64,000 nucleotides of DNA from a virus. Taxonomy: Duplodnaviria; Heunggongvirae; Uroviricota; Caudoviricetes. Below the pieces are notes generated by a model that saw only the letters and a program-made list of their open reading frames with translations, ran no database searches and was not told where the DNA came from. The translations under genes and the position numbers were made by a program. Shown here one piece after another: positions 357 through 32,239 of this stretch (position 1 is the stretch's first letter; every line of letters starts with the position of its first letter). Location: IMG/VR virus record IMGVR_UViG_3300008111_001118. One strand, written 5' to 3'.

Positions 357-847
357 TTTATCGAGGTAATTTTGCAAACTGGATCAATCCTACGTGGAGA
401 GAACTTGTCCTAAACACAGTAGGACAAGCAAGACCCAGAGATTGGCCTCCGGAAACTGCCGTTGAAAGTGCTGAATATTGCAAGGCTCGAGATGCAGGAT
501 ACGATTTAACAGCAACGCACTGGTGGGTATACGAAGAACACGATTTAAATATTAAAATAAGTCCGCCTTGGTGTACTGGAAAAACTGAATGGTGGATCAC
601 AAAGTTAATGCCTGGTCAATTTATGCCGATGCACACAGACCCATTTACACATTATGAAACTTGTAAACGATATTGGGTGCCATTACAAGACTATCAACCC
701 GGGCATTTGTTTGTATACGGAAATTTAGTATTAACAAAGTATTCTGCTGGCGACGTATATGAATACATTAACAGTCAAGATATTCATGGCGCCGCCAATA
801 TAGGACATATGCCAAGAGTAGTGTTGCAGGTCACTGAATATGAGTAA
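353..847 (+). CDS. 2OG-Fe(II) oxygenase-like protein
   Basis: PMHTD, DIHGAAN and PRVVLQ give the HxD...H...R jelly-roll signature. Confidence 0.7.
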   Translation: MIYRGNFANWINPTWRELVLNTVGQARPRDWPPETAVESAEYCKARDAGYDLTATHWWVYEEHDLNIKISPPWCTGKTEWWITKLMPGQFMPMHTDPFTHYETCKRYWVPLQDYQPGHLFVYGNLVLTKYSAGDVYEYINSQDIHGAANIGHMPRVVLQVTEYE

Positions 848-1988
848 AACATATTGTCCGTTGCCATGGGTACACTCGAGTTGGCAAAATGGAAATACTA
901 TACTTCCTTGTTGTGGATTTATGGACGGCGGAAGGTTCAATAAAACATCCGTATTTGAAAAATTGTATTTTGACAACGAAATGGATCAACTTCGGGCAGA
1001 TATGCTTGCTGGTAAAACTATCAAAGGTTGCGAACAATGCTATGATCAAGAAAACAACAATTTAGATAGTATGCGTACTAGAGCGTTAGACAAATACGGA
1101 ATTGTAACAACAATAGATTTACAAGATTTGCATATTATGTTTGATAATCTATGCAATTTAAAATGTAGAATGTGTGCAAGTTCAAACAGTCATTTATGGC
1201 ACGTAGAAGAAAAAGAGTTATACGGAGAGGCATTTTCTTCTAGCAAATATTTTCAAAATACATTTTATAAAGAAGTAAATTTAAAAAACATTAAAGAAAT
1301 TAATCTTACAGGCGGGGAACCACTTTATAGTCCTCATTTTATTCCTTTCTTAAAAAAATTAAAAGAAGATGCAGATACAAGCCAAATTTATATTGATTTT
1401 TTTACTAATGGAACAATACAGCCCACTGAAGAAATTCTTAGTATATTAAAAGAGTTTAAAAAAGTAACAATTACTATTAGCATAGATGCAATAGGAAAAT
1501 TAAACGACTTTATTAGAAAAAACAGTAATTTTGATGAAATAAAAAATAATTTAGATTTTTATTATAGATTATTGTCAGATAAAATTTCAGTAAATGTTTT
1601 GACTACAGTTGGAATTTACAATGCTATCTATGTCGAAGATATTAAAAACTATTTTAGTTTAAATTATCCAAAGTTTAATTGGGGTTACGATGTAATACAG
1701 TATCCAGAATATTTAAGTATAAGACACATGCCAACTAACTTAAAAGATATCTACAAAGAGTATATCAAGGAAGAACCGTTGATATCTTATATGTACGACA
1801 GTGGCAAAGATTTATTTAAACATTTTTTATATTCTCATTATAAACTTAATAAAATAAGAAATGAAGATTTTACTGAGAACAACATTTTGTTAAATTATAT
1901 TAAAAATAATAATACTGACATTTACGAAGAAGAAACCAAAAAGTATTACAAAAATATGATTAACGAAATTCGTGGATCAAGAGATTAA
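840..1988 (+). CDS. Radical SAM protein with N-terminal twitch/SPASM-like Cys domain
   Basis: CNLKCRMC, GGEP, TNGT, SIDA; N-terminal CPLPW..PCC..CEQC. Confidence 0.85.
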   Translation: MSKTYCPLPWVHSSWQNGNTILPCCGFMDGGRFNKTSVFEKLYFDNEMDQLRADMLAGKTIKGCEQCYDQENNNLDSMRTRALDKYGIVTTIDLQDLHIMFDNLCNLKCRMCASSNSHLWHVEEKELYGEAFSSSKYFQNTFYKEVNLKNIKEINLTGGEPLYSPHFIPFLKKLKEDADTSQIYIDFFTNGTIQPTEEILSILKEFKKVTITISIDAIGKLNDFIRKNSNFDEIKNNLDFYYRLLSDKISVNVLTTVGIYNAIYVEDIKNYFSLNYPKFNWGYDVIQYPEYLSIRHMPTNLKDIYKEYIKEEPLISYMYDSGKDLFKHFLYSHYKLNKIRNEDFTENNILLNYIKNNNTDIYEEETKKYYKNMINEIRGSRD

Positions 1989-2965
1989 TTTGTATATTTT
2001 TTTAAAACATATTCTGGTGTTTTTAAAAAACTAGTGTCTTTGTCAGAACACATGTCGCATTCTCCTATTTCGCAGTATTTTGTTTCATCAAAAAAATCAA
2101 TTTCGTCGTTGTTATAATTTTCTAAATTTATAGGTTTATAATTTAAATATTTTTGCCAATCTGGGTCGTTTAATAAATTATGATGATTTAAAAATCTATT
2201 TAATGTACCCAAAGAAGAACACTTGTATAATTTTTTATCAATCAAAAAACTACACATATCACTGGTGCAGCCGTTTTGATAAGATTCGGCAGGATTGTTT
2301 GTTTTAAAGGGTTTAGGAATATTATCAATTAATTGATAATTTTGTTTAAATGTGCTTTGCTCTCTGTAATGAACAAACGTTTTATTATAAAATACCTGTT
2401 CAGTATCTTCAATGTAATCATAAAAGTTTTGTCTTTTGTCTAACCACTCTTGATACAAGATATCGTTTTTTTTATTTTCTATATCGAATAGATTTTTATA
2501 AAAATCGGACACATTTCCACTGGGCAAATTCACAGCATCTGCTAAAAGTTTAAAATTTTGTTTAACTTTATTTGAAAGTGTTTTATCTTCAAATCCTGAA
2601 AAATGGTCACATACAAAAACACTAACATCAAACTGTTTTATTAACGCAACTAGTTCATTGAGTTTTTTATCAATAAGTGTTCCATTGGTTGGTAGTAAAA
2701 GTACAGCATCTGGATCTATGCTTTTTATAAATTTAAATATTTCTGTAATTCGATCTAAATACAGTAACGGTTCACCACCTGAAGTACCATAATAGATTAT
2801 ATCAAATTTTTCTTTGACTAATTTAATGCCTGTTAATATGTCATCCAATGTTGGATCATAGTTTTTTGTTTGCAACACATGGCTTCTTGCATCACAATGA
2901 TTGCAGGCTAAGTTACAATAAGCACCGCAGTAAATATCTAAAAATCTCAGGTATGGTTGACTCAT
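1985..2965 (-). CDS. Radical SAM protein
   Basis: CNLACNHC, GGEPLL, TNGTL, C-terminal CDMC. Start moved to ATG 2965 (MSQPY), 5 nt after a TAAATA box. Confidence 0.85.
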   Translation of the reverse strand: MSQPYLRFLDIYCGAYCNLACNHCDARSHVLQTKNYDPTLDDILTGIKLVKEKFDIIYYGTSGGEPLLYLDRITEIFKFIKSIDPDAVLLLPTNGTLIDKKLNELVALIKQFDVSVFVCDHFSGFEDKTLSNKVKQNFKLLADAVNLPSGNVSDFYKNLFDIENKKNDILYQEWLDKRQNFYDYIEDTEQVFYNKTFVHYREQSTFKQNYQLIDNIPKPFKTNNPAESYQNGCTSDMCSFLIDKKLYKCSSLGTLNRFLNHHNLLNDPDWQKYLNYKPINLENYNNDEIDFFDETKYCEIGECDMCSDKDTSFLKTPEYVLKKYTN

Positions 2966-2970
2966 TGTAA

Positions 2971-3020
2971 TATTTAGTAGTATCACAATTGAGTAACTAT
3001 GTTTTTGTTTGCAGTAAATA
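2971..3020. promoter_or_regulatory. Divergent late-promoter boxes (TAAATA at 2971-2976 on minus, 3015-3020 on plus)
   Basis: T4-like late consensus in the intergenic gap. The plus-strand gene also has an AGGAGA SD before ATG 3047. Confidence 0.5.
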
Positions 3021-3046
3021 TTAGAAATAATACCACAGGAGATAAA

Positions 3047-4117
3047 ATGAAAGTATCAAAAATTCCCGGTTTAGGTTCATATGGACATTATATTGACGAC
3101 TTAGACTTTGATAATATCACAGATGAAGAATGGGCAGAAATTGGAAAATTTCATTTAACTGATTTAGTAACTATTCTAAGAAACGTTAAAATTACTAAAG
3201 ATCAGTACTATAACAGAATTCGGCAATGGGGTCCTTTTATCGGTGCAACAATGTCTCGCAAGCACTTTCAAAAAAAATACGGTCAAGATTTTGATGGTAG
3301 AATTCAAGAACATTACAAAAAATTTAATGTATCATCAGAAGACGAACGTTATATTAAAATGAAACAGTTTTATATTGAACATACTGAACATGGTAATACA
3401 TTAACACGAGTTTGTGGCAAAAGAGATGAATACGGTAACCCAATGGGCAACTTTTCATCTGGCGAGTTATATTGGCACAGTAACGAATCGTCTGTAATTA
3501 ACTTTACTCCCGGAGTTGCATTGATGGGCGGAGAGTATATGGTAGGTAGTTCTACAGGATTTCTACAAACTGCTGATTATTATCAGTCAATCTCTGAAAG
3601 TTTTAGAAGCGAACTTAACGAAATGATTTTAGTTCACGCATACATTCCTGGAGGGATTAATGAACTCGAAAAAGATGATCCAAGTTTTGGAGAAAACATA
3701 AGAAAAGAATTTGCACCAGTTGACGGGGCTGAAGTACCCTTGGTAATTACAAGTCCGGGCGGAATCAAAGGACTGCATTATACACTTAATTCTGTTGTTG
3801 GAATTAAAGGTATGAGTAAATATGATAGCGATAAAGTTTTTGCAGAAATTGACCGAGAATTGTTAACTGAAAAATATATTTACGATCACATGTACTTACA
3901 AGACAATGAGATTTGTTTATTTGATAATTCGATAACATTACATAGAAGAAAGCATCCTGGAAATCCGAACAGACTTGCATTTAGATTGCAATATTATCCT
4001 GATAGTTTAATAAAACAATCGTGGCATCCATATCATCAACAGCATTTTTACAACTATCATCAAGATGAAATGCTAGAGTTGATGAATATCCTAGAGTTAG
4101 ATTTAAAATTTCCATAA
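3047..4117 (+). CDS. TauD/TfdA-family dioxygenase
   Basis: LYWHSNE, STGFLQT, LFDNSITLHRR, R-x3-R. ATG 3047 follows AGGAGA. Confidence 0.8.
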   Translation: MKVSKIPGLGSYGHYIDDLDFDNITDEEWAEIGKFHLTDLVTILRNVKITKDQYYNRIRQWGPFIGATMSRKHFQKKYGQDFDGRIQEHYKKFNVSSEDERYIKMKQFYIEHTEHGNTLTRVCGKRDEYGNPMGNFSSGELYWHSNESSVINFTPGVALMGGEYMVGSSTGFLQTADYYQSISESFRSELNEMILVHAYIPGGINELEKDDPSFGENIRKEFAPVDGAEVPLVITSPGGIKGLHYTLNSVVGIKGMSKYDSDKVFAEIDRELLTEKYIYDHMYLQDNEICLFDNSITLHRRKHPGNPNRLAFRLQYYPDSLIKQSWHPYHQQHFYNYHQDEMLELMNILELDLKFP

Positions 4118-4124: not shown

Positions 4125-5267
4125 ATGTCTGATATAAAAACAAAGTTAATCAACATCGAATGGTTATTTGTTGATCAAGATCATTACGATTTGATAATGA
4201 TCGAAATTGATCAAGCAGTGCGAGAAAAATGCAACGTAATTATTTTTCTTGCACTGATGGACGGATTTGTGGCGTGGGATCCTAAATATTGGATCCCACT
4301 GATTGACAAACTCGACAATGCTTGTAAAAAATTAGGTATACAAGAGATAATTTTTATATCTGGTGCTGGAAAAACATATGAGTATGGTTTAAAACACACA
4401 CACTACTTTTATGACTGGAATATGAGTGTTGTAAAAAATGCATACAAAGATTATGATAATCAAATCAAAGATTATAATAACGATGCTGACAAGTTTTTAT
4501 TTTTAACAGGTCGTTCTGCTCGTCCAAATCGTATTGGACTAATGAGTAAATTTTACGACGAAAATATGTTAAAAAATAGCACTTGGTCATTTTTTCCTCC
4601 TTGGAACGAAATAGATAACAAATGGTGCCGAAACTATTTGTCAAAATATACAGATAAAGAATATAACGAGTTTTTAAAAAACTGTAATAGATCTTTAGAT
4701 AGCGATAACGAATACAACTCTTGTAAAAGTTTTTTAGGAGTTTACGAAGGCGACAACTGGCACGATATTGTAAAAGAACCCTACATACACAATCCGTCAT
4801 TTATAGATTTGCATCACTATAACGATGTAAAGTTAACAGTAATAAGTGAAGGGCCGATATACTGGGAATGGAGTAACGACCGGTATTATCTTACTGATAA
4901 AACTTATAGAGAATTATTAATGAAGAAGCCAGTAATTTTATCGGGCTATGTAGAACAATACAAAGAATTGAAAAATCTAGGATTTAAGACATTTGACGAG
5001 AATTTCTTAATCAAAGAGTACGGTTTAATCGAAGATGAAGAACAGCGTCTTGAAGCAATAGTACAAAATGTAAAATATTTTTTAAACAACAGCGATTATC
5101 AAAAAGTCAAACAAGACGTTGACTTTAATACAAAGTTATTGTATTATTATTTTAAAAAGCAAGATGAATTTTTAAAGTATTTAGAAACAAAGTACAATGC
5201 TAGTAAAGAAGAAATTGAGTTTTTCTTTAATCGTAAAGGTCTTGAGCACCTAATAAGAAAACCCTAA
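4125..5267 (+). CDS. Hypothetical protein, possibly glycosyltransferase-like
   Basis: 380 aa. RPNRIGL and TDKTYR..KKPVIL..LGFKTF resemble GT-B-like C-terminal segments common in large phages. Confidence 0.4.
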   Translation: MSDIKTKLINIEWLFVDQDHYDLIMIEIDQAVREKCNVIIFLALMDGFVAWDPKYWIPLIDKLDNACKKLGIQEIIFISGAGKTYEYGLKHTHYFYDWNMSVVKNAYKDYDNQIKDYNNDADKFLFLTGRSARPNRIGLMSKFYDENMLKNSTWSFFPPWNEIDNKWCRNYLSKYTDKEYNEFLKNCNRSLDSDNEYNSCKSFLGVYEGDNWHDIVKEPYIHNPSFIDLHHYNDVKLTVISEGPIYWEWSNDRYYLTDKTYRELLMKKPVILSGYVEQYKELKNLGFKTFDENFLIKEYGLIEDEEQRLEAIVQNVKYFLNNSDYQKVKQDVDFNTKLLYYYFKKQDEFLKYLETKYNASKEEIEFFFNRKGLEHLIRKP

Positions 5268-6364
5268 TGTTTTATCAAAAAATTACTCAACTCGAACTTG
5301 AACTTACAACAAGATGCAACGCATCTTGTCCTCAGTGTGTACGTAATTTTTACGGTGGAAAAACATGGCCAACATTGCCCATGGTCGACATTGACTTGGA
5401 ATTAATTAAAACAAAAATACCAGATTCAATTTTAAAAGACTTGATAGAAATTCGTATTTGCGGAACTTATGGTGATCCCTGTATCTATCAAGATTTGATA
5501 GAGTTAGTCAAATATTTAAATTCAAAAACTTCTGCACAACTTACTATTAATACAAACGGTAGTTTACGTACAACAAAATGGTGGAAAGATCTTGCTAACG
5601 TTTTAAAAAAAGATGATAGAGTTATTTTCGGAATAGATGGTTTAGATGACACAAACCATTTGTATAGAGTTAACACAAACTTTAAAAAAATAATCAATAA
5701 TGCAAAAGCATTTATATCTGCTGGCGGATCAGCAATATGGAGTTACATTGTTTTTAAACACAACGAACATCAAGTAGATGCTGCAAGACAATTAAGCAAC
5801 AAACTCGGATTTGATGGGTTTTCTTGTAAGTTGACAACTAGATTTATCGATAAACAACATAATCTAGTTGATAAAACTCCAGTGTTTGACAAAAATAATA
5901 ATCTTAATAGATATTTAGAAATGCCTGATGAAAAGAAATATCTAAACAATGGCTATAATAACTACGAAAAAATTATAAAAGAGTTCGGATCTTATGAAAA
6001 CTATTTGCAAAAATCTAAAATATTTTGTACTGCACAACACAGTAATTTAATTTATATTTCAGCCGAAGGGTACGTTTTGCCTTGCGGATGGCTTGCTGAT
6101 AGATTTTATGGGTTTGAAACCGAAAAGCACAAAGATAGAAAAAAATTATTTGAGTTGATTGACCTAAACGGCGGTCTAAACACTATTAGTTTGCATCATT
6201 TTTCATTGGACGAAATTGCAAACAGTAAAGTGTTTCACGCTATACAACAAAACTGGATTAGCGAAAATAGAATAGAGCGTTGTGCAAATCAATGTAGTAA
6301 ATACGGTATGCTTAAACAAAATGCTACAAAAGAATTACAACCTTATGTAAAAGGAAATGTATAA
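5267..6364 (+). CDS. Radical SAM protein with C-terminal twitch/SPASM-like domain
   Basis: CNASCPQC, GTYGDP, NTNGS, FGIDGL..TNHLYR, C-terminal C..PCG..CANQC. Confidence 0.85.
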   Translation: MFYQKITQLELELTTRCNASCPQCVRNFYGGKTWPTLPMVDIDLELIKTKIPDSILKDLIEIRICGTYGDPCIYQDLIELVKYLNSKTSAQLTINTNGSLRTTKWWKDLANVLKKDDRVIFGIDGLDDTNHLYRVNTNFKKIINNAKAFISAGGSAIWSYIVFKHNEHQVDAARQLSNKLGFDGFSCKLTTRFIDKQHNLVDKTPVFDKNNNLNRYLEMPDEKKYLNNGYNNYEKIIKEFGSYENYLQKSKIFCTAQHSNLIYISAEGYVLPCGWLADRFYGFETEKHKDRKKLFELIDLNGGLNTISLHHFSLDEIANSKVFHAIQQNWISENRIERCANQCSKYGMLKQNATKELQPYVKGNV

Positions 6365-7270
6365 ATGCACAATATTTTTAAAAATTCTTATGCTATACAA
6401 GATCCTGAAATAGTAGACTTTATAAAACACATTGATTTTTCAGAAGCATTATGGGATAATAGTGTTACTAAAAATTTTTGTAATGCTTACAAAAATTGGA
6501 TTTTAAGTTCTGCCGACAATAATTTTATAGGTTTAAATAACTTCACATATGCAATTTATAGCAACGGTGCGTCTCAAGCGTTTGATATGTTTTATATTAA
6601 AAATAAAAATAGACGTTTTAGATGTTTTAAGGGCGAATATGTTTATCACAAACTAGCCTGGAGAAATAATTGGAACGACTGGACATTTATAGAGGATTCA
6701 CCTTTAGAATTTAATGATGCAGTAGTAATTAGTTTACCGTTTAGTGACACCGGAAACAAGCATGTTGAGATGGACAGTGTTTTAGAGATATGCGATCGAT
6801 TACAGATTCCAGTGTTAATTGATTGTATATATTTTGGAATTTGTAATAATATAAATTTTGATTTATCTTTTAATTGTATTACTGATGTTGTTTTTAGTTT
6901 AAGTAAAACATTTCCTGTTGCAAATGCAAGAATTGGAATAAGATTTACAAAAACAGATGACGACGACCTTATGTTTGTATATGATAAGATGAATTACAAT
7001 AACAGACTTGGTTCTCACTTAGGATTAAATCTTTTACAAAACTTTTCACCAGATTTTGTATACAATAAATATAAAAGTAAACAACTCGAGTGTTGTAGTG
7101 TTTTAAATATTACGCCAAGTAATACAGTTTTATTTGGCGTAGACAACTTTAAAAAATACAATCAATATAACAGAGGCACTAATACCAATAGACTAAGTCT
7201 TCAAGACTTGCTAATTTTAAACAATTTACAAATGAAAGAGATATTATATGCCAATTCAAACAAACAATGA
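6365..7270 (+). CDS. Fold-type I PLP-dependent enzyme (aminotransferase-like, short)
   Basis: PVLIDCIY (PLP Asp), FSLSK (Schiff-base Lys), ARIG. Confidence 0.65.
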   Translation: MHNIFKNSYAIQDPEIVDFIKHIDFSEALWDNSVTKNFCNAYKNWILSSADNNFIGLNNFTYAIYSNGASQAFDMFYIKNKNRRFRCFKGEYVYHKLAWRNNWNDWTFIEDSPLEFNDAVVISLPFSDTGNKHVEMDSVLEICDRLQIPVLIDCIYFGICNNINFDLSFNCITDVVFSLSKTFPVANARIGIRFTKTDDDDLMFVYDKMNYNNRLGSHLGLNLLQNFSPDFVYNKYKSKQLECCSVLNITPSNTVLFGVDNFKKYNQYNRGTNTNRLSLQDLLILNNLQMKEILYANSNKQ

Positions 7271-8309
7271 TTGGGATCCTTTAGAAGAGATTGTAGTTGG
7301 TATAGCCGATCATGCAATGCTTCCAACTCTTGATAAAAGTACTCATAGTTTTTCTTATGCAGCAAACACATATGACGAAATTAAACATCTTAACGGAATT
7401 TTACACAATCAACAAGTCATTGACGAAGCAAATGAAGACTTAGATGGATTGTCAGATACTTTAAAAAGTTTAGGTGTTAATGTATTAAGACCTGATGTAA
7501 TTGATCATAGACAAAAATTTAGTACGCCCGATTGGGAAACTACAGGGTGGCATACTTATTGTCCCAGAGACTTGTTGTTACCTTTGGACAACATGATTAT
7601 CGAGTGTCCTAGTCCTATGCGGTCTCGATACTTTGAAACTCGTGCATATTACAATCATTTATATAAATGGATGAAGGAAGGTTCGCAATGGATCTGTGCT
7701 CCAAAGCCGATACTATTAGATGAAAGTTATCAACTAGATGATATAAAAGAAGCAACCTTACTAAATCACGAAATTGTATTTGATGCACCAAATATCGTTA
7801 GATTAGGAAGAGATTTACTTTGCCAAGTAAGCAACAGTGGAAATCAACTTGGGTTTGAATGGCTAAAAACTATTCTCGAACCAAAAGGATACAGATTTCA
7901 TATTGCAGAAAAGTATTATAGTTTTTCGCATTTTGACAGCACAGTAATTCCTCTTCGTCCTGGATTGGTTTTGTTCAACGGTGACAGATTAAATGAAGAC
8001 TGGTACCCGCCTATTTTTAAAAGTTGGGATAAGATTTTTTGGCCTGGCGAAAAAATTGGTAAAATACCTACAAATTTATCAAACGGTATCTCACCGTGCT
8101 CACCTTATATTGGACTAAACTTGTTAAGTGTAAATCCTGAACTCATTATTGTAGATGAAAATCAACAAGAACTGATGAAAGAATTAGACAAAACATGGGG
8201 AATTGAAAGTATTGGTTTGCCAATGAGACAAGCAAGAACATTAAGCGGTGGCTTTCATTGTGTTACATTAGATACAAAACGTAAAGGAACACTAGAGGAC
8301 TATTTTTAA
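7248..8309 (+). CDS. Amidinotransferase (AGAT/StrB1 family)
   Basis: DWDPLEEIVVG, YCPRD, FDAPN, HFDST, LSGGFHCVTLD; Asp-His-Cys triad intact. Confidence 0.9.
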   Translation: MPIQTNNDWDPLEEIVVGIADHAMLPTLDKSTHSFSYAANTYDEIKHLNGILHNQQVIDEANEDLDGLSDTLKSLGVNVLRPDVIDHRQKFSTPDWETTGWHTYCPRDLLLPLDNMIIECPSPMRSRYFETRAYYNHLYKWMKEGSQWICAPKPILLDESYQLDDIKEATLLNHEIVFDAPNIVRLGRDLLCQVSNSGNQLGFEWLKTILEPKGYRFHIAEKYYSFSHFDSTVIPLRPGLVLFNGDRLNEDWYPPIFKSWDKIFWPGEKIGKIPTNLSNGISPCSPYIGLNLLSVNPELIIVDENQQELMKELDKTWGIESIGLPMRQARTLSGGFHCVTLDTKRKGTLEDYF

Positions 8310-11629: not shown

Positions 11630-11658
11630 TTGACATCAATAGTTTTTTATGTTACTAT
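11630..11658 (+). promoter_or_regulatory. Sigma70-type promoter
   Basis: TTGACA (11630-35), 17 nt, TACTAT (11653-58); ATG 7 nt downstream at 11666. Confidence 0.7.
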
Positions 11659-11665
11659 ATACAAT

Positions 11666-15493: not shown

Positions 15494-15503
15494 GAGATGA
15501 TTG

Positions 15504-24464: not shown

Positions 24465-24466
24465 AC

Positions 24467-25066
24467 ATGATAATAACAAAAGCAATGGATATACCCGGAG
24501 AAACAACCGAACTTCAACATGAGTGGTATCAAAAAATTGTTAATTGGTTTTATTATAAACCTAAAATTTTAGAAATTGGATGTGCGTGGGGTAGAGGATC
24601 GTGGGCATGGTTAGATTGTATAACTGATACCAACGACGGCTCTTTAGAAATTTTAGATAATTGGGCGTACTCAAGGAGATATAGCAAAATTAAAATTTAT
24701 GATGAAAATTATTATAATCACATAGGACAGATTTTTCCCGATTATAATCAAAAAGAAATATTGTTGTATAATTTAAAACAAAACAAAAATTTTAAAAAAT
24801 TAAAACACATTTATACAGGCAAGTATTTAGCCGCACCAAAATCTTATGATATTGTTTATTTAGATGATGATCATAGTCAAGAAAACGTATTAAACGAATT
24901 AAATTATTTTAATGGAATTCCTGTAATATGTGGAGATGACTTTGCCCAAAGTCAACCCGGAGTTCTAAAAGCAATATGTAAATTTTATTCTAAAAATTTT
25001 AATAATTATAAATTATATACAGATCCTGATGCTAGATTTTGGGTAATGAAACGAATAGACATATGA
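24467..25066 (+). CDS. Class I SAM-dependent methyltransferase
   Basis: ILEIGCAWGRGS, YDIVYLDDDH, GDD; ATG at 24467. Confidence 0.75.
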   Translation: MIITKAMDIPGETTELQHEWYQKIVNWFYYKPKILEIGCAWGRGSWAWLDCITDTNDGSLEILDNWAYSRRYSKIKIYDENYYNHIGQIFPDYNQKEILLYNLKQNKNFKKLKHIYTGKYLAAPKSYDIVYLDDDHSQENVLNELNYFNGIPVICGDDFAQSQPGVLKAICKFYSKNFNNYKLYTDPDARFWVMKRIDI

Positions 25067-25157: not shown

Positions 25158-25862
25158 ATGCTAGATCTTTCTAAAAATAAAATAAGTTACACTATAAACA
25201 AGTATAAAATTATGACAGGTAATTGTGATTTTAAAACACATCTTCTATTATTGAATTATCTAAATCCTATGTCTGTTTGGGAATTAGGAGCCGGCCGAGG
25301 GTCGTGGTGCCTTGGATTACATGAATTTTCTAATAATAACACACGTTATAATTTAGTTGAAGATTTTTCTTGGTGCAAACACGGTTACGATAAATTATTT
25401 GTTGATTATTATTGGCCAAAAAATATTAAGGATTTAGAAAGTTTTATAAAAAGTACAAACAGTAATATAAATTACAAAATATTTGATGGTGACATTTCAA
25501 ATTTTAAAGAAAGTCTTAAAAATGTAGAAGTAATTAGAATTGATTGTGATTTATTAAACACACAAGACACTATAGACACAATATTAACTAATAGTTTTGA
25601 TAATTTAGTTATTTTAATAGATGACATTAGACCCAATGGTGCCTTTAATAGACTGTTTGATGTACTAAGTTTTATAGAAAAAAATAAATTAAAAATAATT
25701 TTAACAGCAGACGAGACAGTAGTATTAGCTAAACCACAATTTGATGTTGACAATTTATATCAACACTGTCTTACATATAAAGAAAAATTTAAAAAGATTT
25801 CTTTTAGAAATGATTACAACATATATAATAAACAAGCAGAATATTTACAATTTAAAGATTAA
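25158..25862 (+). CDS. Class I SAM-dependent methyltransferase-like protein
   Basis: VWELGAGRGSW, IRIDCD, ILIDD. Confidence 0.65.
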   Translation: MLDLSKNKISYTINKYKIMTGNCDFKTHLLLLNYLNPMSVWELGAGRGSWCLGLHEFSNNNTRYNLVEDFSWCKHGYDKLFVDYYWPKNIKDLESFIKSTNSNINYKIFDGDISNFKESLKNVEVIRIDCDLLNTQDTIDTILTNSFDNLVILIDDIRPNGAFNRLFDVLSFIEKNKLKIILTADETVVLAKPQFDVDNLYQHCLTYKEKFKKISFRNDYNIYNKQAEYLQFKD

Positions 25863-25864: not shown

Positions 25865-27016
25865 ATGTCACACACATTTTGTAGCGAACCTTATAAACAA
25901 ATACATTTCGATAGTAGAGGAAACTTGGGACCGTGTTGTCAATATGTAGGTATTAGACCAGAAATGACAAGTTTTAATGAATACTTAAATAGTGATTGGT
26001 TAAAAAATTTAAAAAACCAGTTAAACAACAATCATAAAACAAGTGGATGCAATTTTTGTTGGAAACAAGAAAACAATGGATCTAAAAGTATGCGTGAAAA
26101 AAGAAATGCATACTATGAAAATAAACCCAACAACGGAATAGAACATATTATGATTACTTACGGCAATCAATGCAATACTGCATGTCGTATATGCAACTCG
26201 AGTAGAAGTAGTTTAATTGAAAAACAGTATAGAGAAATGAAAGATAACGTTACTGATCAAGAACTTTTGAATTTAATAAGTAAAAAACATGTATGGAATA
26301 AAACAAAGACTTGGTATCGTAATATAAACAATGATATAATTTCAATCGCAGACACTATTCGAAAAATTGAAATCAGTGGTGGCGAACCTTTTATAAATGT
26401 TCATTTTGATAAACTTATAGATGGTTTAATTGAGTCTGGTAAAAAATTGCCAGGACTTAATATAACAACTAACGGAAGTTTTACAGAGGAACAAATTGTT
26501 AAGCTAAAAGAATTCGAGCATGTACATATAAACTTTAGTATCGACGGAGTAGGAAAAGATTTTTACGAATATTTAAGATGGCCCTTAAAATGGAATGACG
26601 TCTTATCAAAAATTGATATTCTTAAAAAGTATCCGTGGATAACTTGCGAATTTGTTATAGTTCCTCATAACTTAAACGTTTTAAATTTAAGTGAAAGTAT
26701 CATTTGGTTTAAAGAATATACAAATTACGATACTAGATTTAAGATAGGATTTAGTTGGCTTAACGGAGCACCTTGGTATAGTATTGATAATACTCCGAAA
26801 CGGGCAAGAGATAAGGCTATAGCAGATATAGAAAGTACTATATTTGTAGATTACACTGACGTAGAGATAGAACAGATTAACGAATTAATTTTTATTTTAA
26901 AGAACGCAAACAACCCTAAAGAATTAAATTTATTAAAATCTCATGTTGCAATGACTGATTCTTATAGAAATTGTAACACATGGGATGTTGTTGGATGGAA
27001 ATTAGAAGAGATATGA
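25865..27016 (+). CDS. Radical SAM protein with N-terminal twitch-like domain
   Basis: CNTACRIC, GGEPF, TTNGS, SIDG; N-terminal PCC..CNFC. Confidence 0.85.
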   Translation: MSHTFCSEPYKQIHFDSRGNLGPCCQYVGIRPEMTSFNEYLNSDWLKNLKNQLNNNHKTSGCNFCWKQENNGSKSMREKRNAYYENKPNNGIEHIMITYGNQCNTACRICNSSRSSLIEKQYREMKDNVTDQELLNLISKKHVWNKTKTWYRNINNDIISIADTIRKIEISGGEPFINVHFDKLIDGLIESGKKLPGLNITTNGSFTEEQIVKLKEFEHVHINFSIDGVGKDFYEYLRWPLKWNDVLSKIDILKKYPWITCEFVIVPHNLNVLNLSESIIWFKEYTNYDTRFKIGFSWLNGAPWYSIDNTPKRARDKAIADIESTIFVDYTDVEIEQINELIFILKNANNPKELNLLKSHVAMTDSYRNCNTWDVVGWKLEEI

Positions 27017-28107
27017 ATAAACCTTTTTGCTATGCACCTTGGACAACAATCCAATACAGTGGAGTATATAGTGGCGGCGGAACGTCTCCGTGTTGTGAAT
27101 GGAGGGGAGAAAAATATAAAGGAAAAGTTAAAGATTACCAAGATAGTGAATATTTGGATAAAATAAAACTTGCAATGGAAACACACGATACAAGTTTTAT
27201 TGCTTTTAGTTGTCAAGAATGTATTAATACTGAGTCACATGGCATCTTGTCGGCTAGAAATTTTATTGATAAAAACGTAAAAAATAATAAGTATGAAATA
27301 GGAAAAATAAACAAATTAGATTATAGGCCGGATAATTTGTGTAATTTAAAATGTAGAATGTGTAGCCCGAGTAGTAGCAGCCTCATCGAAGAAGAACGAG
27401 TTTTACATAATTTGATAAAGCCTATTGAAAAAAGAGATACCAATGACGTGTTAGACTTTGATTTATCTAGTTTAAGACATCTTGCTATATTAGGTGGCGA
27501 ACCAACAGTTAACAAAAATCTCTTTCCTATTTTAGATTATTTTATAGAGACCGGTATGACAGAAACTGTTCGCTTGCAGTATACAACTAATTGTACAAGT
27601 GTTAATAACCCGTGGATGAGTCGAGTGAAACAATTTAAAGAGGTCAACATAAATTTAAGTTTAGACGGCGCTGGAAAATCTTATGAGTATATAAGAACAG
27701 GTGCAAAATGGTATAATGTTGAAAAAAACATTCATAAAATAATAAAATCTGCAAATAATTACAGTATTAACATGTGTATTCAAATGGTAAATTTTGTGCT
27801 AGTTGAAGACTGGATAGAATACTTTTTTCAGTTTGATTCTGATAAAGTACACATGAATCCTATGTTTGGAGCAGTTCCAGGAAAGGTTGACTGCATACCT
27901 GACGATATTAGAGAACAAAAAATAGAATATTTGCAATCTTTAAAACATCCTATATCGGATAAATTAGTTGATAGATTTAAAAATTACAAATTTAATATAA
28001 ATGAACTTATACGATACAAAGAATTCAACAGTTGGCATGACAACATAAGAAATACAAATTTATTAGACCTTGATCCTATTTTTTCAAAAATCTTAACAAT
28101 GGTCTAA
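27013..28107 (+). CDS. Radical SAM protein with N-terminal twitch-like domain
   Basis: CNLKCRMC, GGEPT, TTNCT, SLDG; N-terminal CYAPW..PCC..CQEC. Confidence 0.85.
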   Translation: MNKPFCYAPWTTIQYSGVYSGGGTSPCCEWRGEKYKGKVKDYQDSEYLDKIKLAMETHDTSFIAFSCQECINTESHGILSARNFIDKNVKNNKYEIGKINKLDYRPDNLCNLKCRMCSPSSSSLIEEERVLHNLIKPIEKRDTNDVLDFDLSSLRHLAILGGEPTVNKNLFPILDYFIETGMTETVRLQYTTNCTSVNNPWMSRVKQFKEVNINLSLDGAGKSYEYIRTGAKWYNVEKNIHKIIKSANNYSINMCIQMVNFVLVEDWIEYFFQFDSDKVHMNPMFGAVPGKVDCIPDDIREQKIEYLQSLKHPISDKLVDRFKNYKFNINELIRYKEFNSWHDNIRNTNLLDLDPIFSKILTMV

Positions 28108-28821
28108 TACCAACAGGTTTGCCAGCGGCAGTTTTGGCTAAATGTATAGATTTAGTCGGCAACAGTTGAAAGTCAGTTATTACTTTTTTATATTCTTCGT
28201 TATATGTTTTCCAAAAATATTCTGGGCCAAATGCACCCCTATTCTATTTCCACCTAGCCCTCCCTTGCTTAAACTAATACCAAATGTTTGAATAGCAGGG
28301 TGGTCAAAGTCGAATTCGATATCTCGAATACAACTTATCCAAGCACCATCGATGTGTACAGGTATTTTTAGTTTATAGCAAGTATTTAAAATTTCTGTCA
28401 TTTCTGGATGTACATCACCGTAGTACGGAAACGGCATTGAAATTAACAACTCTTTATTTGGATCTAATGTATCAATAGTAGTATAAGTTATATTAGGATT
28501 TAATCTATAATGATACTTATAGTCGTTTTCAAAAGTTTGTAACGAACCGCAGCGTTGATAAAGATCATCGATATATTGAGTACAGCCGTTTATAATGTCT
28601 AATCTTTTAAAAACATCTACACCTTTAAATTTACTATACTGATGATTTTTAAGCCAATTAACAAATGTTTCTTTAAAAATCGAGTCTAAATCTGCGGTAT
28701 GTACTGGATTTTCTTTATAAAAATTATCGTAAAACTCGTTAATTTTATTACTGTACATAGGTTGCGGCCTGTCAGTTTGTAACCATTCTTTAGTATACTC
28801 TCTTGTTACGTTATCTCTCAT
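28076..28821 (-). pseudogene. PLP-dependent enzyme paralogue of 6365..7270, broken by internal deletion plus frameshift near 28235
   Basis: Frame 1 has PVHIDGAW and ISLSK..NRIG. Another frame carries the homologous tail AFGPEYFWKTY...GIRPLLRFLKK (stop at 28076). About 30-35 aa present in the paralogue are absent. Confidence 0.75.
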
Positions 28822-28860: not shown

Positions 28861-30051
28861 ATGAAACCTTGCATACTTCCTTGGATAAATTTTAGCACCA
28901 ACACATTCGGTCGTCCTCGAACTTGCGGCTATGCAGATCAGGCAGTTGTAAAAGATGCACAAGTCAAGTTAAAAGGTAGTAGTATAGAAAACGAATGGAA
29001 CAATGATTATTTTAAAAAAATACGTATAGATTTTTTAAACGGAAAATGGCCAGAGAACTGTAAGCGTTGCGAGTACGTTGAAAGTTTAAATGGTCATAGT
29101 AAACGATTAGAAGAAAACAAATACCATTACGAAACAAACAAACATCTCATCAATGAAACTAAATCCGATGGCAGTGTTCCGTATTACCCACCTAATATTG
29201 ATATTCGTGTTGGCACAATTTGTAATTTGAAGTGTATACATTGCGGCACCGGCGCTAGCAGCAAATGGAACGAAGACAAGTCCCTATTAAACAAATATCC
29301 TAATACAGAATCGTATAACATAGATAACAAGTGGATAGAACAAGATAGTTTTATATGGGATAATATAAAAGAAAATCTACATCAAACAAAAAAGTTTAAC
29401 TTTTTAGGTGGAGAGCCATTTGCTAATAAACAACACAATAAATTTATCGAAGAAATTTCAAAAACAGAACACGCAAGTAAAATAACACTTCACTATGTCA
29501 GTAACGGAACATTGTTAACTGAAAAGATACTTAATCAACTATCTAAATTTGAAAGTGTTGTAATTAGATTAAGTGTTGACGCTATTGATATTCCTGGAGA
29601 ATATTTTAGATTTCCTATTAAATGGGAAACATTTAAAAAGAAACTCGAATTAATACAACAATATGCAAAACAGTATAGTAACTTTGATGTTGGGGTACAG
29701 TGGACCTGCTCAAATATAAGTATGTTTTATCTAGTTGAGACGTATGATTACATAAAATTTAATTTTCCAGATATAAAATTTATTCTTTGTAATCATGTAG
29801 AATGGCCGATTCACATGAGTGCTCAAGTGTTACCCGTAGAATTAAAACAAATTATCAAAGAAAAAATAAATCGATACAATTTTGATGACACAGACAAAAT
29901 AGAATTTTATGTTAATCACATGTTTGAAAAAGATTTATGGAACGAATACGGAAAAACATTCATTTCTTATCTAAATGACCTAGACACCGCACGAAACATA
30001 TCATGGAAGCATAGTTTTAAAGAAATGAAAATTGAAAACTACACATATTGA
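28861..30051 (+). CDS. Radical SAM protein with N-terminal twitch-like domain
   Basis: CNLKCIHC, GGEPF, SNGT, SVDA; N-terminal CILPW..TCG..CKRC; paralogue of 19658. Confidence 0.85.
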   Translation: MKPCILPWINFSTNTFGRPRTCGYADQAVVKDAQVKLKGSSIENEWNNDYFKKIRIDFLNGKWPENCKRCEYVESLNGHSKRLEENKYHYETNKHLINETKSDGSVPYYPPNIDIRVGTICNLKCIHCGTGASSKWNEDKSLLNKYPNTESYNIDNKWIEQDSFIWDNIKENLHQTKKFNFLGGEPFANKQHNKFIEEISKTEHASKITLHYVSNGTLLTEKILNQLSKFESVVIRLSVDAIDIPGEYFRFPIKWETFKKKLELIQQYAKQYSNFDVGVQWTCSNISMFYLVETYDYIKFNFPDIKFILCNHVEWPIHMSAQVLPVELKQIIKEKINRYNFDDTDKIEFYVNHMFEKDLWNEYGKTFISYLNDLDTARNISWKHSFKEMKIENYTY

Positions 30052-30075: not shown

Positions 30076-30080
30076 AAATT

Positions 30081-31193
30081 ATGAATGAAGATTTAAAATG
30101 GAGTAATTATGATTTTACCAAGATTCCGTTTGACGACATTATACAAGTCGGCCAGCGGACACTCTTATATAGAGACTTATTTACTGTATCTTGGCTCCTT
30201 GGAAGATACTGCAACTACAGATGCTCATACTGCTGGCCCTATGCAAGATCTGACAGAAAAGATCATAGACCTACAGAGTTATGTCTCAAAACCATCGACG
30301 AAATAAAGCGTCAGGCTCGTGACAATGGATTTAATAGTTTTCACTTTTCGTTAAGTGGTGGTGAGCCTACATTTCATCCTGGATACTTAGACATACTAAA
30401 ACATCTAGCAGATGATGTTGACAATACCAATTATACTAGTGTACATATGACATCGAATTGTAGTAGACCTGTGCGCTGGTTTGAAGATTATGTAGAAAAA
30501 GTCAAGCCGTTTCACAGAGCAAGCATTACAGCAAGTTTGCACACTGAACATTTAGATACAACAGCAAAGATGCAGGATTTTGCAGACAAACTGATATTAT
30601 GTCAAGAACACGATGTTCAAGTTACTATCAACATGGTTATGGTACCCGAATGGTTTGAACGTGATTGGGACAATGCACTATTCTTCCACGAGCAGGGCAT
30701 AAACGTAACGCTAAAGCCTCAAAGCGACCCTACAGCAAGCCGAGTAGTAGATGGATACACAGATGACAATCTAAAACGTTTACACAACGGTATGCCGCAG
30801 CGTGCTTATACAGAAACAAAGCGTAAATGGAACGACCGTCCTAGACCTAATTTTGAACTACCTAAACACGCTTTAGTTAATAATGATTCAAATGTTCCTA
30901 GCCATTTTCAAGTAGAATTTTTAGATTCTACAGGAAAAAAATGGTACATGGATCAAGCCGAAAGATTTAATGCTTTTAATTTTAATAAATTTAAAGGCTG
31001 GAATTGCAATGCTGGGTATCAAGGAATTATTATCAGAGAACCTGACGGAAGTATAAAACGTAGTTACAGTTGTTCAGATGTTCCATTAGGAAACATTGAA
31101 ACAGGATTTAAATTGTTTTCTAATCCAATGCCCTGTATAACTGATAGTTGTGTTAGTTCGGCTGACAGTAAAATACCAAAAAGAAAACACTAA
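30081..31193 (+). CDS. Radical SAM protein
   Basis: CNYRCSYC, GGEPT, TSNCS, C-terminal WNC..C..PCITDSC; paralogue of 18668. Confidence 0.85.
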   Translation: MNEDLKWSNYDFTKIPFDDIIQVGQRTLLYRDLFTVSWLLGRYCNYRCSYCWPYARSDRKDHRPTELCLKTIDEIKRQARDNGFNSFHFSLSGGEPTFHPGYLDILKHLADDVDNTNYTSVHMTSNCSRPVRWFEDYVEKVKPFHRASITASLHTEHLDTTAKMQDFADKLILCQEHDVQVTINMVMVPEWFERDWDNALFFHEQGINVTLKPQSDPTASRVVDGYTDDNLKRLHNGMPQRAYTETKRKWNDRPRPNFELPKHALVNNDSNVPSHFQVEFLDSTGKKWYMDQAERFNAFNFNKFKGWNCNAGYQGIIIREPDGSIKRSYSCSDVPLGNIETGFKLFSNPMPCITDSCVSSADSKIPKRKH

Positions 31194-32239
31194 TGCCAAT
31201 CTGTAAAGCCCTTCATAATCAAGTGTGTATAGAACTCAGTGGTTTTTATAAACCATGCTGTTCGTACAAAGGTATAAGTAAAATTTCTGTAAATGATATG
31301 TCTCCGGATGACTTTTTACATTCCGAATATATAGCAAATATAAGAAAAAATATGGAGGGCAATTCATGGGATCCGGGTTGCTACAACTGTAAAAAACACA
31401 TCGAACTAGGATTACATTCTGTAAAAGATTCTTATGATTTTTATTGTAAATCTGACTTAAACACTTTTGAAATGTTAGAGTTGTCTGTTAGTAATAAATG
31501 TAATAATCAATGTAGAATGTGTGATTCTAGACATAGTAGTTTGTGGCAAAAAACTTTAGGAGGCAGCAATATACCTGTGTCTTATTATAATTTAGAAAAC
31601 GTTCTATCTAAGATAAAAAGTAAAGATATTAAAATTATAAAATATCTAGGTGGAGAACCATTAATAACTGATGAAGTGTTTCATATATTTGAGTTTATCG
31701 AAAAAAATAAAGAAAATAAAATTTCTTTTTATGTAAACACAAATTTAACAGTTCCTCCTGAAAAATATTTAAAACATTTTACAAATATAGACAGTTTTAT
31801 AATTGGATATAGTATTGACGGTACTGGATTAACAAACGAATATATTAGAGATGGAAGCAAATGGGAAACTATAAAAAGAAATCTAGATAAGTGGGAAAAC
31901 TATATTAATAAAAGAAACGATAACAGTGAAAGATATGTTCATACAGTTTTGCAAGCCTATAATTATCATGATATAGAAAATATAAACAAATTATGTCAAG
32001 ATTACGGATTATACTATAATATTTTTCCTATTACATATCCTTTGGAATTTTCGATAAATGCTTTACCTCAATGGTATATTGAAAAACATATGTGCAAAGA
32101 AACTGAAGAATTTTTAAAAAATTACAATCACGACACTGAGTTACTCTCTAAATTAATTGAAACTACGGCAAGTCAAGACAATGTGCTTCAAAAGTCAATA
32201 AATGACTTTATACCAGAATTGAGTTTTTTAAAAACTTAA
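31193..32239 (+). CDS. Radical SAM protein with N-terminal twitch-like domain
   Basis: CNNQCRMC, GGEPL, NTNLT, SIDG; N-terminal PCC..CYNC. Confidence 0.85.
   Translation: MPICKALHNQVCIELSGFYKPCCSYKGISKISVNDMSPDDFLHSEYIANIRKNMEGNSWDPGCYNCKKHIELGLHSVKDSYDFYCKSDLNTFEMLELSVSNKCNNQCRMCDSRHSSLWQKTLGGSNIPVSYYNLENVLSKIKSKDIKIIKYLGGEPLITDEVFHIFEFIEKNKENKISFYVNTNLTVPPEKYLKHFTNIDSFIIGYSIDGTGLTNEYIRDGSKWETIKRNLDKWENYINKRNDNSERYVHTVLQAYNYHDIENINKLCQDYGLYYNIFPITYPLEFSINALPQWYIEKHMCKETEEFLKNYNHDTELLSKLIETTASQDNVLQKSINDFIPELSFLKT

Follow-up and report, generated by a model that had tools for sequence, protein, structure and literature searches.

A radical SAM-rich phage island with a conserved core and exchangeable cassettes that may make and tailor an unusual glycan

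What might a tailed phage make with seventeen radical S-adenosylmethionine (SAM) enzymes encoded almost side by side? The question is raised by IMG/VR record IMGVR_UViG_3300008111_001118, a Caudoviricetes virus of which a stretch of 64,000 nt (the window) was analysed, and in which an island of radical SAM (rSAM) genes occupies positions 840-32239. The island was found to consist of a conserved, ordered core of five to six genes with a mosaic of exchangeable rSAM cassettes in between, and we put at about even the chance that it is a modular, rSAM-rich locus that makes and tailors an unusual glycan. Open reading frames (ORFs) were called with translation table 11, families were assigned by Pfam, NCBIfam, PHROG and PDB sequence searches, and the island was compared with a sample of 81 IMG/VR loci (labelled L001 etc.) and with cellular genomes (G-numbers). 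Genes are named by their lower coordinate (Table 1).

Conserved core and exchangeable cassettes

The core begins with a glycosyltransferase (GT)-like protein of the GT-A type (11630), followed by a 13290-like protein, a 74-aa protein (14197) and rSAM 14414; after a variable stretch comes rSAM 19658 and, after a second one, rSAM 30081. When gene neighbourhoods were compared across related phages, as an earlier note on this DNA had advised, this order proved fixed in the viral loci, with variable cassettes in between. At least 210 viral contigs in IMG/VR carry a 19658 orthologue; in the best 80 of these 210 matching stretches, which are the loci kept for this comparison, the orthologues are 79-87% identical, and a metagenome search with 19658 returned 4243 proteins at E <= 1e-10. 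Orthologues of 14414 show 49-85% identity across the viral loci, 67 of the 81 reaching 50% or more, and those of 30081 reach 91% identity (at least 50% in 50 loci) and always lie downstream of 19658. The stretch bounded by 14414 and 30081 measures 8.1 kb in the most compact versions (L051, L058) and 16.8 kb in the window, and the variable cassettes are shared patchily with L001, L006/L007 and L043. The T4 Gp23 capsid protein and 7-19 rSAM matches are encoded by each of five large contigs of related phages (182-257 kb, 51-72% complete by estimate), so that the 17 rSAMs of the window are many but not exceptional. The island is therefore not one of a kind, given the 210 or more viral contigs, the relatives with up to 19 rSAM matches and the published phages with 11-12 rSAM genes discussed below. 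A phage origin is supported, as the flanking genes match PHROGs and the island is syntenic with the Gp23-encoding contigs.

All 17 ORFs in which a CxxxCxxC motif had been seen match Pfam PF04055, with one CX3CX2C motif in each, that is, 17 genes in 31 kb or about one per 1.8 kb, a density far beyond chance. The gathering score of 29.5 bits was passed by 16 of the 17, while 14414 reached 28.0 bits yet has the motif CQASCPMC. Fifteen rSAMs lie among tightly packed, often overlapping plus-strand genes, and the singleton 1985, for which the 81 viral loci yielded no homologue, is on the minus strand. The previously proposed grouping (eight with an N-terminal Cys domain, four with a C-terminal one, two with a CNY motif, two B12-binding and one singleton) was reproduced by NCBIfam and all-against-all BLAST. 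Eight ORFs (840, 17551, 19658, 22520, 25865, 26980, 28861 and 31193) exceed the curated cut-off of 170 bits for NF033640 (N_Twi_rSAM, twitch domain-containing radical SAM protein) with 205-423 bits, whereas the other nine score 19-58 bits and are not members. These eight N-twitch paralogues share only 20-28% mutual identity, and in their alignment (A1) Cys 4, 22, 67 and 70 (numbering of the first sequence) are invariant and N-terminal to C121/C125/C128. Judged from its sequence, this four-Cys domain ahead of the core is an auxiliary-cluster domain as NF033640 defines it. NF033640 itself has no assigned function; here it is represented by eight paralogues on a phage, beside two other rSAM groups. 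The same alignment places the true start of the 26980 ORF probably at 27013, as the family N-terminus begins at an internal Met.

The C-terminal Cys group comprises 5267, 14414, 15501 and 16529, and CNY(K/R)CSYC is common to 18668 and 30081. The latter two score 47 and 41 bits, respectively, against viperin-like NF038283 (cut-off 180) and at most 44 bits against MoaA models (TIGR02666), so that neither clears the curated cut-off of these families. Both 8309 and 21051 have B12-binding-like N-termini that fall below named-family cut-offs (PF02310, 17 and 31.4 bits, cut-off 32.1; NF033712, 206 bits for 8309, cut-off 700); their architecture resembles that of B12-dependent rSAM methyltransferases.

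The earlier note had named housekeeping roles, decay or relaxed selection as findings that would speak against a dedicated system. None of the paralogues maps to a housekeeping activity, no decay was found among the 17 rSAMs, whose cluster cysteines are intact, and the ratio of nonsynonymous to synonymous substitution rates (dN/dS) is at most about 0.3 for every rSAM with an orthologue, as expected under purifying selection; because dS is saturated in all pairs, this ratio is to be read as an upper bound only.

Because 11630 has no Pfam match, and a profile search of PDB sequences gave nothing useful, its family was assigned from its predicted structure. Foldseek matched the model to K4CP chondroitin polymerase (E 2.4e-6), to RmlT, WrtF, SunS and ArnC (probability 1.0), to ThuS and to GT2 clusters of AFDB, and the fold matches further include ppGalNAc transferases and Mimivirus R699 (9e92). 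The last of its GT-A domains carries D389-x-D391, invariant in 14 homologues (alignment A2). By fold and DxD motif, 11630 is thus predicted to be a GT-A glycosyltransferase, GT2-like. For the adjacent 13290, Atlas features point to Methyltransf_31/PCMT clusters, and a methyltransferase assignment found no support in Pfam, PDB-profile or hhalign comparisons (hhalign against 24437, probability 0.6%). In three relatives (L017:2056-4866, L044:4436-7072 and L041:3913-7089) the GT-A and 13290-like proteins are fused into one of 878-1058 aa, which supports a joint function.

Between 13290 and 14414, an apparent spacer of 204 nt shows conservation with wobble at third codon positions and encodes the 74-aa protein, an ORF that had been overlooked in the earlier gene inventory, as had the break in the pyridoxal 5'-phosphate (PLP) enzyme gene 28180. 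The protein occurs in 64 of the 81 viral loci with a mean column identity of 81% (alignment A6), is conserved over its full length except that the last residues vary, and is predicted with high confidence (AlphaFold2 pLDDT 90.8) to be a three-helix bundle. No relative was found in the Atlas, and Foldseek gave only E > 1 (best VIA Z 4.1). Since it is conserved along its whole length and has a compact predicted fold, it looks like a small accessory protein rather than a leader-core precursor. The invariant Ser40, at the start of a helix, had prompted the idea of an acyl-carrier-like role, for which no support was obtained, and a complex prediction of rSAM 14414 with the 74-aa protein (score 0.01) bears neither way.

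The core thereby bears on an alternative to the glycan, namely that the rSAMs mature peptides made ribosomally and modified post-translationally (RiPPs) or act like anSME-type enzymes. Their targets would be residues of a phage protein, e.g. fibre-like 10151 or another virion component, to be cross-linked, epimerised, methylated or oxidised, and the GT-A enzyme would then glycosylate that protein. We consider this unlikely, although peptides or proteins are the typical substrates of SPASM/twitch rSAMs, weak NCBIfam matches to PapB, WgkB, SkfB, MftC and PqqE were obtained, the peptide S-glycosyltransferases SunS and ThuS are among the fold matches of 11630 together with the ppGalNAc transferases, and rSAM 14414 has a small conserved ORF coupled to it. 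Possible peptide-processing partners also exist, i.e. an S8 subtilase (39511-40877) in the window, an S9 peptidase-ABC2 fusion by a cellular array and an Asp/Asn hydroxylase-domain protein in the cellular island of G007. Furthermore, mycofactocin biosynthesis (MftA peptide, MftB, rSAM-SPASM MftC, GT2 MftF, MftM) is known to pair an rSAM-SPASM protein, a GT2 and a methyltransferase, and likewise has GT2-type, methyltransferase-like, small-ORF and auxiliary-cluster rSAM genes in one operon. However, the MftC/PqqE models scored only 20-30 bits, and the small island protein is a predicted helical bundle without a conserved C-terminal core, unlike a precursor peptide, with no homologue detected in the cellular islands. 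Pfam and NCBIfam scans of the island proteins revealed no RiPP recognition element (RRE)/PqqD domain (PF05402), including in any of the 17 rSAMs, which speaks against RRE-dependent systems, and no nonribosomal peptide synthetase (NRPS), polyketide synthase (PKS) or nucleotide kinase. Moreover, a frameshift interrupts the S8 gene, which the minimal islands do not have, and protein modification would leave the amidinotransferase and the sugar-enzyme neighbourhoods described below unexplained.

Table 1. Features of the island and of its surroundings in the window.
Feature	Position	Strand	Evidence and remarks
164-aa protein, possible cupin/2-oxoglutarate (2OG) oxygenase	353..847	+	HxD...H pattern read by eye; no Pfam or PHROG match; translationally coupled to first rSAM; 81% identical orthologue at same position in L001
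N-twitch rSAM	840..1988	+	NF033640 248 bits; PF04055 E 2.3e-13; CNLKCRMC
Singleton rSAM	1985..2986	-	PF04055 E 3.4e-12; best NCBIfam lysine 2,3-aminomutase, weak, 33 bits
TauD/TfdA-family Fe(II)/2OG dioxygenase	2999..4117	+	PF02668 E 1.4e-14, 55 bits, cut-off 27
380-aa protein	4125..5267	+	34% identical homologue in L001; no Pfam, NCBIfam, PHROG or PDB match by single sequence or profile
rSAM with C-terminal Cys (twitch/SPASM-like) domain	5267..6364	+	PF04055 E 1.6e-11; SPASM below cut-off; paralogue of core 14414 (225 bits)
Divergent class I/II aminotransferase-like PLP enzyme	6365..7270	+	A3 profile: 3if2 E 4.7e-5, 7vrx 0.0035
Arginine-dependent amidinotransferase (StrB1/AGAT family)	7248..8309	+	phmmer vs PDB: 1bwd E 1.6e-86
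B12-binding-type rSAM, KedN5-like, putative C-methyltransferase	8309..10156	+	PF04055 E 1.1e-12
Repeat-rich fibre-like protein	10151..11596	-	~20-aa GNVxGNVxD-type repeats; divergent from core operon
Terminator-like hairpin	10160..10187	.	Between convergent 8309/10151; 11-bp stem, 4 GC pairs
Core 1: three tandem GT-A-like domains	11630..13309	+	AlphaFold2 pLDDT 81; Foldseek
Core 2: methyltransferase-like protein, unverified	13290..14210	+	Rossmann-type CAGWYG and SFDID invariant in alignment A8
Core 3: 74-aa three-helix protein	14197..14421	+	Stop-to-stop ORF listing and DNA alignment; stop overlaps 14414 start
Core 4: rSAM, C-terminal Cys domain	14414..15493	+	PF04055 just under cut-off; CQASCPMC
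rSAM, C-terminal Cys group, variable cassette	15501..16523	+	PF04055 E 1.5e-7; 268 bits vs 16529
rSAM, C-terminal Cys group, variable cassette	16529..17548	+	PF04055 E 1.1e-9; SPASM 20 bits
N-twitch rSAM	17551..18675	+	NF033640 220 bits
rSAM with CNYKCSYC	18668..19615	+	PF04055 E 9.5e-13; best NCBIfam viperin-like, below cut-off; distant paralogue of 30081 (69 bits)
Core 5: most conserved N-twitch rSAM	19658..21073	+	NF033640 423 bits
B12-binding rSAM	21051..22520	+	PF04055 E 1.2e-15
N-twitch rSAM	22520..23584	+	NF033640 227 bits
297-aa conserved protein, possible oxygenase	23571..24464	+	HxD...H pattern read by eye; 81% identical in L006/L007; no Pfam or PHROG match
Class I methyltransferase-like	24437..25066	+	PF13578 Methyltransf_24 E 3.5e-4, 21.9 bits, cut-off 26.3
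Possible methyltransferase	25158..25862	+	GxGxG-type motif ELGAGRGSW, by eye only; no Pfam or PHROG family match; BLASTP vs 24437 not significant, E 0.11
N-twitch rSAM	25865..27016	+	NF033640 215 bits
N-twitch rSAM	26980..28107	+	NF033640 217 bits
Broken PLP aminotransferase-like gene, 6365 paralogue	28180..28821	-	76% identical to 280-293-aa orthologues (L043, L063)
N-twitch rSAM	28861..30051	+	NF033640 294 bits; metagenomic orthologues up to 94% identity
Core 6: rSAM with CNYRCSYC	30081..31193	+	PF04055 E 9.8e-15
N-twitch rSAM, last island gene	31193..32239	+	NF033640 205 bits
Nitroreductase-family flavoprotein	32242..32895	-	Abuts island; PF00881 E 5.1e-11
Phage SAM synthetase	49939..50988	-	3/3 MetK Pfam domains, E 2e-32 to 2e-49
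QueE-like, 18th rSAM-like gene	50985..51809	-	PHROG 2076, E 3e-41

Counterparts in bacteria and in other phages

A scan for the motif CNLxCRMCSP in one genome per prokaryote species yielded 86 loci, mostly in Bdellovibrionota; close cellular relatives of 19658 were not found by peptide-pattern scan, and the eight-paralogue alignment was too divergent for scanning. A complete 1.89-Mb Bdellovibrionales chromosome (G010) has 16 copies above the NF033640 cut-off, in tandem arrays, and three other genomes have 24, 14 and 9 copies that are likewise arranged in tandem. The arrays of G010 (L170-L172) lie at about 793-803 kb and 1069-1093 kb and include several recent duplicates (branch lengths 0.17-0.35). 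Orthologues of the core trio 14414/19658/30081 are present at 46, 56 and 64% identity in a Pseudobdellovibrionaceae metagenome-assembled genome (MAG), and at 47, 56 and 59% on a 1.27-Mb contig of a Parcubacteria genome (G009), where the phage gene order is kept. A Bacteriovoracaceae MAG encodes 14414 and 19658 orthologues (49 and 60%) and a GT-A homologue of 11630, with no 30081 orthologue seen on that contig. The cellular islands also hold the 6365-type PLP family, whose members lie within the arrays of G007 and G010, and an amidinotransferase. In the tree, the 19658 orthologues of phages fall into a single tight clade (100/100) whose sister group is that of the cellular orthologues. Other paralogue groups also mix phage and cellular members, 840 for instance grouping with copies of G007 and G009. 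It follows that the paralogue set is old and has moved between cells and phages.

The bacterial arrays are accompanied by sugar enzymes. In Parcubacteria the neighbours include a class I/II aminotransferase (Aminotran_1_2), GT4 and GT28-like proteins, an AsnB-type amidotransferase, a protein resembling short-chain dehydrogenases/reductases, and Sua5/YrdC and Kae1/TsaD proteins, which are the two halves of TobZ-type sugar carbamoyltransferases. Directly downstream of the N-twitch array in the same genome, a 538-aa protein (L176:1002-2618) fuses an N-terminal rSAM to a GT2. In Bdellovibrionales, a 30081-like rSAM and seven N-twitch rSAMs in tandem have as immediate neighbours a dehydrogenase of the UDP-glucose/GDP-mannose type, a GT2 and an asparagine synthase, and another array adjoins an ABC-2/S9-peptidase fusion and an ABC ATPase.

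These cellular contexts also help to assess whether the island could serve hypermodification of phage DNA or of nucleotide precursors, i.e. whether sugars, amino acids or polyamines on bases would be sculpted to evade restriction. T-even phages do glycosylate their DNA, the window holds genes of the 7-deazaguanine pathway (QueE-like) and polyamine genes, and CNYxCxYC in 18668 and 30081 is the signature of the nucleotide-acting enzymes viperin and MoaA, although scores are sub-threshold. In addition, rSAM and PLP enzymes sculpt thymidine hypermodifications (PMC8989533). Nevertheless, large arrays of the same rSAM family stand beside polysaccharide-type genes in bacteria that have no DNA modification of the phage type, and no 5-hydroxymethyldeoxyuridine (5-hmdU) kinase, aGPT-Pplase, DpdA-type transglycosylase or nucleotide-binding enzyme was detected in the island. 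In addition, the T4 DNA glucosyltransferases are GT-B enzymes, whereas the island GT is of the GT-A type. We regard a role in DNA modification as very improbable.

Several phages rich in rSAM genes have been described, and the island is a large member of this already reported, uncharacterised kind of multi-rSAM T4-like phage. The Campylobacter phages CP220 and CPt10 have 11-12 rSAM genes and an interchangeable five-rSAM module with an amidinotransferase (Timms 2010, PMC2853527), a T4-like marine genome has 12 (Nishimura 2017, PMC5332604), and in pelagimyophages rSAM cassettes stand beside GT and lipopolysaccharide (LPS)-type genes in a hypervariable host-recognition cluster (Zaragoza-Solas 2020, PMC7029224). 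The authors who described cyanophage S-SCSM2R referred to its AHBA_syn/rSAM/amidinotransferase set as 'antibiotic synthesis genes' (PMC12801897). None of these four papers assigns a function to these rSAM sets. According to its annotated record, the S-SCSM2R module has five GTs, an AHBA_syn-type aminotransferase, an rSAM, a 2OG oxygenase and an amidinotransferase homologous to 7248, and that of CP220 has six rSAMs, two GT-A-type nucleotide-diphospho-sugar transferases and a PAP2 phosphatase and adjoins baseplate genes. CP220/CPt10 (Firehammervirus) thus resemble the window in being T4-like, with many rSAMs, an exchangeable module, adjacent GT-A-type transferases and an amidinotransferase that is 27-29% identical to 7248, but their rSAMs are distant (23-33% over parts) and they have no close homologue of the core trio; indeed, neither 19658 nor the trio has a close homologue in cultured phages. 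The pelagimyophages and the marine T4-like genome share with the window an aquatic origin and a hypervariable island mixing rSAM, GT/LPS-type and fibre genes, whereas the two papers, by whose descriptions they are set apart here, give gene content only (PMC7029224, PMC5332604), without core-cassette anatomy or cellular counterparts.

Glycan making and tailoring as the favoured reading

The accessory enzymes of the island were confirmed to different degrees: the TauD-family oxygenase 2999 and the amidinotransferase 7248 stand on clear family matches, the GT on its fold and the PLP enzymes 6365 and 28180 on profiles, while the methyltransferases are sub-threshold or recognised by motif. Residues 4-352 of 7248 align to residues 5-346 of inosamine-phosphate amidinotransferase (1bwd), followed among the matches by SxtG, HsvA and AGAT, a full-length similarity that identifies it by sequence as a StrB1/AGAT-family amidinotransferase; its phage homologues are those of S-SCSM2R and the CP220 group. 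In the 6365 family, Asp153, Ser178 and Lys181 (SxSK motif) are invariant; the 3if2 match of its profile covers the cofactor region only, it has no Pfam match, and it is about 100 residues shorter than typical members. The paralogue 28180 stops after 213 aa; about 35-40 internal codons are deleted, and beyond them its C-terminal part continues in another frame. Homologues of the fibre-like 10151 occur in L001, L005, L046, L029 and L031, placed upstream of the GT gene and oriented as in the window.

Several lines of evidence point to a glycan. The core is headed by the predicted GT-A enzyme with its invariant DxD, fused to the 13290-like protein in the three relatives; amidinotransferase/rSAM modules are embedded among GTs in cultured phages; and the cellular trio (46-64% identity) lies beside sugar enzymes, with the rSAM-GT2 fusion as a further tie. 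By analogy, an rSAM oxidant, a PLP enzyme and a StrB1-like enzyme would together reproduce the logic by which aminocyclitols and amino sugars are guanidinylated. This hydroxyl-to-guanidino logic is established in streptidine and butirosin biosynthesis. Known aminoglycoside/aminocyclitol tailoring (BtrN, StsC/BtrS, StrB1, GenK/KedN5-type, TobZ) is matched by the twitch-type rSAMs, the PLP and StrB1-like enzymes and the B12-rSAMs of the island and by the TobZ-like parts of the cellular island, but the island has no scaffold-forming cyclase, its twitch domain is N-terminal instead of C-terminal, its PLP family is class I/II-like instead of DegT, and no sequence-level orthology between BtrN and the island rSAMs was detected. 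The lack of RRE/PqqD, NRPS, PKS and nucleotide kinase matches and the conserved, divergent fibre-like gene upstream of the GT are also consistent with a glycan, as would be, by analogy, the rSAM cassettes in the pelagimyophage host-recognition cluster (PMC7029224).

A number of points weigh against this reading. No enzyme of the island has an assayed relative, and PDB sequence searches with 19658, 14414 and 30081 gave absent or marginal matches. There is one clear GT for 17 rSAMs, and no nucleotidyltransferases, sugar dehydratases, flippases or polymerases were found in the island, nor were Wzx/Wzy/Wzm seen in the window; in terms of polysaccharide-cluster criteria, the UDP-glucose dehydrogenase, the GT2/GT4/GT28 proteins and the ABC-2 pair belong to the cellular counterparts. 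For rSAMs with auxiliary clusters (SPASM/twitch), peptides or proteins are the more usual substrates, the PLP family resembles the class I/II (amino-acid) type and not the DegT type of sugar aminotransferases, and the S9 peptidase-ABC2 fusion beside one cellular array could equally serve peptide export. Finally, the neighbourhood evidence is correlative, and MAG contigs can be misbinned, yet one of the arrays is on a complete chromosome and one on the 1.27-Mb contig.

As for the reactions, the sugar substrate and the acceptor, we infer the following scheme. The core operon would attach a first sugar and remodel it by radical chemistry, whether in the form of a nucleotide sugar or once it is acceptor-bound. 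The N-twitch rSAM cassettes may then carry out dehydrogenation, epimerisation, deoxygenation or C-C chemistry, the B12-type rSAMs C-methylation and the 2OG oxygenases hydroxylation, with further edits by methyltransferases. A guanidino branch would start with the oxidation of a hydroxyl to a ketone by an rSAM, a reaction known from BtrN, continue with amine formation by the class I/II-like PLP enzyme 6365 and end with the transfer of an amidino group from arginine by StrB1-like 7248. The phage SAM synthetase would provide the cofactor. The fibre-like protein 10151, some other protein of the virion or the host envelope may serve as acceptor.

The amidinotransferase could also be taken to mean that the product is a diffusible small molecule, aminoglycoside-like or guanidino, directed against competitors or the host or used as an infection signal. 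Its closest relatives are StrB1, SxtG and HsvA, a KedN5-like B12-rSAM, TauD and PLP enzymes are typical of secondary metabolism, a polyamine cluster and an adenylating enzyme adjoin the island, and the S-SCSM2R homologues bear their 'antibiotic synthesis' label (PMC12801897). We nevertheless hold this to be decidedly unlikely. A lytic infection is short for a pathway of 30 genes that ends in a secreted compound, neither an exporter nor a resistance gene nor a scaffold synthase (2-deoxy-scyllo-inosose synthase, inositol enzymes) was detected, and the adenylating enzyme is truncated. Moreover, the core begins with a GT and the cellular contexts resemble polymer loci. A glycan is therefore favoured over a free small molecule, because both the cellular homologues and the modules of cultured phages sit among sugar-nucleotide and GT genes, and the earlier list of candidate substrates (virion proteins or glycans, host surface molecules, a small molecule) narrows to that extent. 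The multi-step radical tailoring system envisaged in the earlier note fits all findings, not as one bespoke pathway but as a core with exchangeable cassettes.

A bolder version of glycan tailoring is a tentative one that we deem possible but rather improbable. The N-twitch family and the two other conserved rSAM groups might constitute an unrecognised radical carbohydrate-editing toolbox, with a C-H functionalisation of its own for every paralogue, the sugar being bound already to a virion fibre or envelope polymer, and phages and predatory bacteria might swap cassettes to obtain hypervariable glycan coats for host recognition or evasion. If true, this would amount to a new class of enzyme chemistry and a new layer of phage-host surface diversification.

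Chlorovirus and mimivirus glycosylation likewise relies on virus-encoded transferases and sugar-modifying enzymes, independently of the host, but uses conventional NAD/PLP sugar chemistry and belongs to eukaryotic viruses; none of these systems is known to employ rSAM arrays. rSAM enzymes are costly and oxygen-sensitive catalysts. That 17 of them are kept under purifying selection by a phage with its own SAM synthetase implies that the product must matter to the virus. The core genes are abundant in aquatic metagenomes and the kit recurs in Bdellovibrionota and in bacteria of the candidate phyla radiation, with no member of known reaction. The identity of the product would annotate NF033640, a large curated family without a function, would probably reveal new carbohydrate radical chemistry, and would account for a hypervariable region, suspected of governing host interaction, in phages that abound in the environment. 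As cultured carriers of smaller related modules exist (phages of the CP220 group, S-SCSM2R), the question is directly testable.

Composition and flanking genes

The G+C content is 0.30-0.32 for positions 1-40000 versus 0.38-0.40 for 40000-64000, with a sharp step near 40000; that is, the rSAM island and the adjacent polyamine block (a cluster of the ornithine decarboxylase/saccharopine-dehydrogenase type) differ in composition from the remaining phage DNA. Neither half of the window has DNA similarity to GenBank phages. An alternative genetic code as the cause of split genes was ruled out, since table 11 is coherent and the breaks are frameshifts or deletions. Rfam and tRNA scans of the window were empty, and sigma-70-like promoters and terminators were not more numerous than in shuffles. 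The T4 late-promoter core TATAAATA is depleted over both strands of the window (2 copies versus 11.4 expected from shuffles), and one of the two copies is directly upstream of the broken gene 28180.

Homologues of the nitroreductase-family gene that abuts the island occur in 16 viral loci, in L013 (14869-15477) directly after the 30081 orthologue, and its product may be a redox helper or partner of the rSAMs. Against the PDB it gave only a weak match to an NAD(P)H-flavin oxidoreductase, and a BluB-like role found no support. The SAM synthetase is the likely supplier of the cofactor. The overlapping QueE-like gene lacks a canonical CX3CX2C and may have a variant cluster motif, as in some QueE. 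Outside the island, the window also encodes an epimerase/dehydratase, a GT1 and a UDP-glucose-dehydrogenase-like protein.

The AMP-binding enzyme gene at 36417-37764 (minus strand) is broken into an N-terminal piece (profile 2-108) and a C-terminal piece (248-384), the middle being gone, and the S8 subtilase gene (minus strand) is split by a frameshift. Together with 28180, these broken genes suggest turnover of the accessory region. As L058 joins the island directly to homologues of window genes 42563-47775, the nitroreductase/polyamine/subtilase/Mtd-fibre block (32242-42505) is an additional insertion in the phage of the window. At 40877-42505 (minus strand), just past the inserted block, a protein of 542 aa that contains an Mtd_N (major tropism determinant N-terminal) domain is likely a receptor-binding fibre. 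A MoxR-type AAA ATPase and a DUF2201 metallopeptidase/VWA protein, a common phage pair, are encoded at 44039-46472 (minus strand) and lie beside the island in L058 (64-74% identity).

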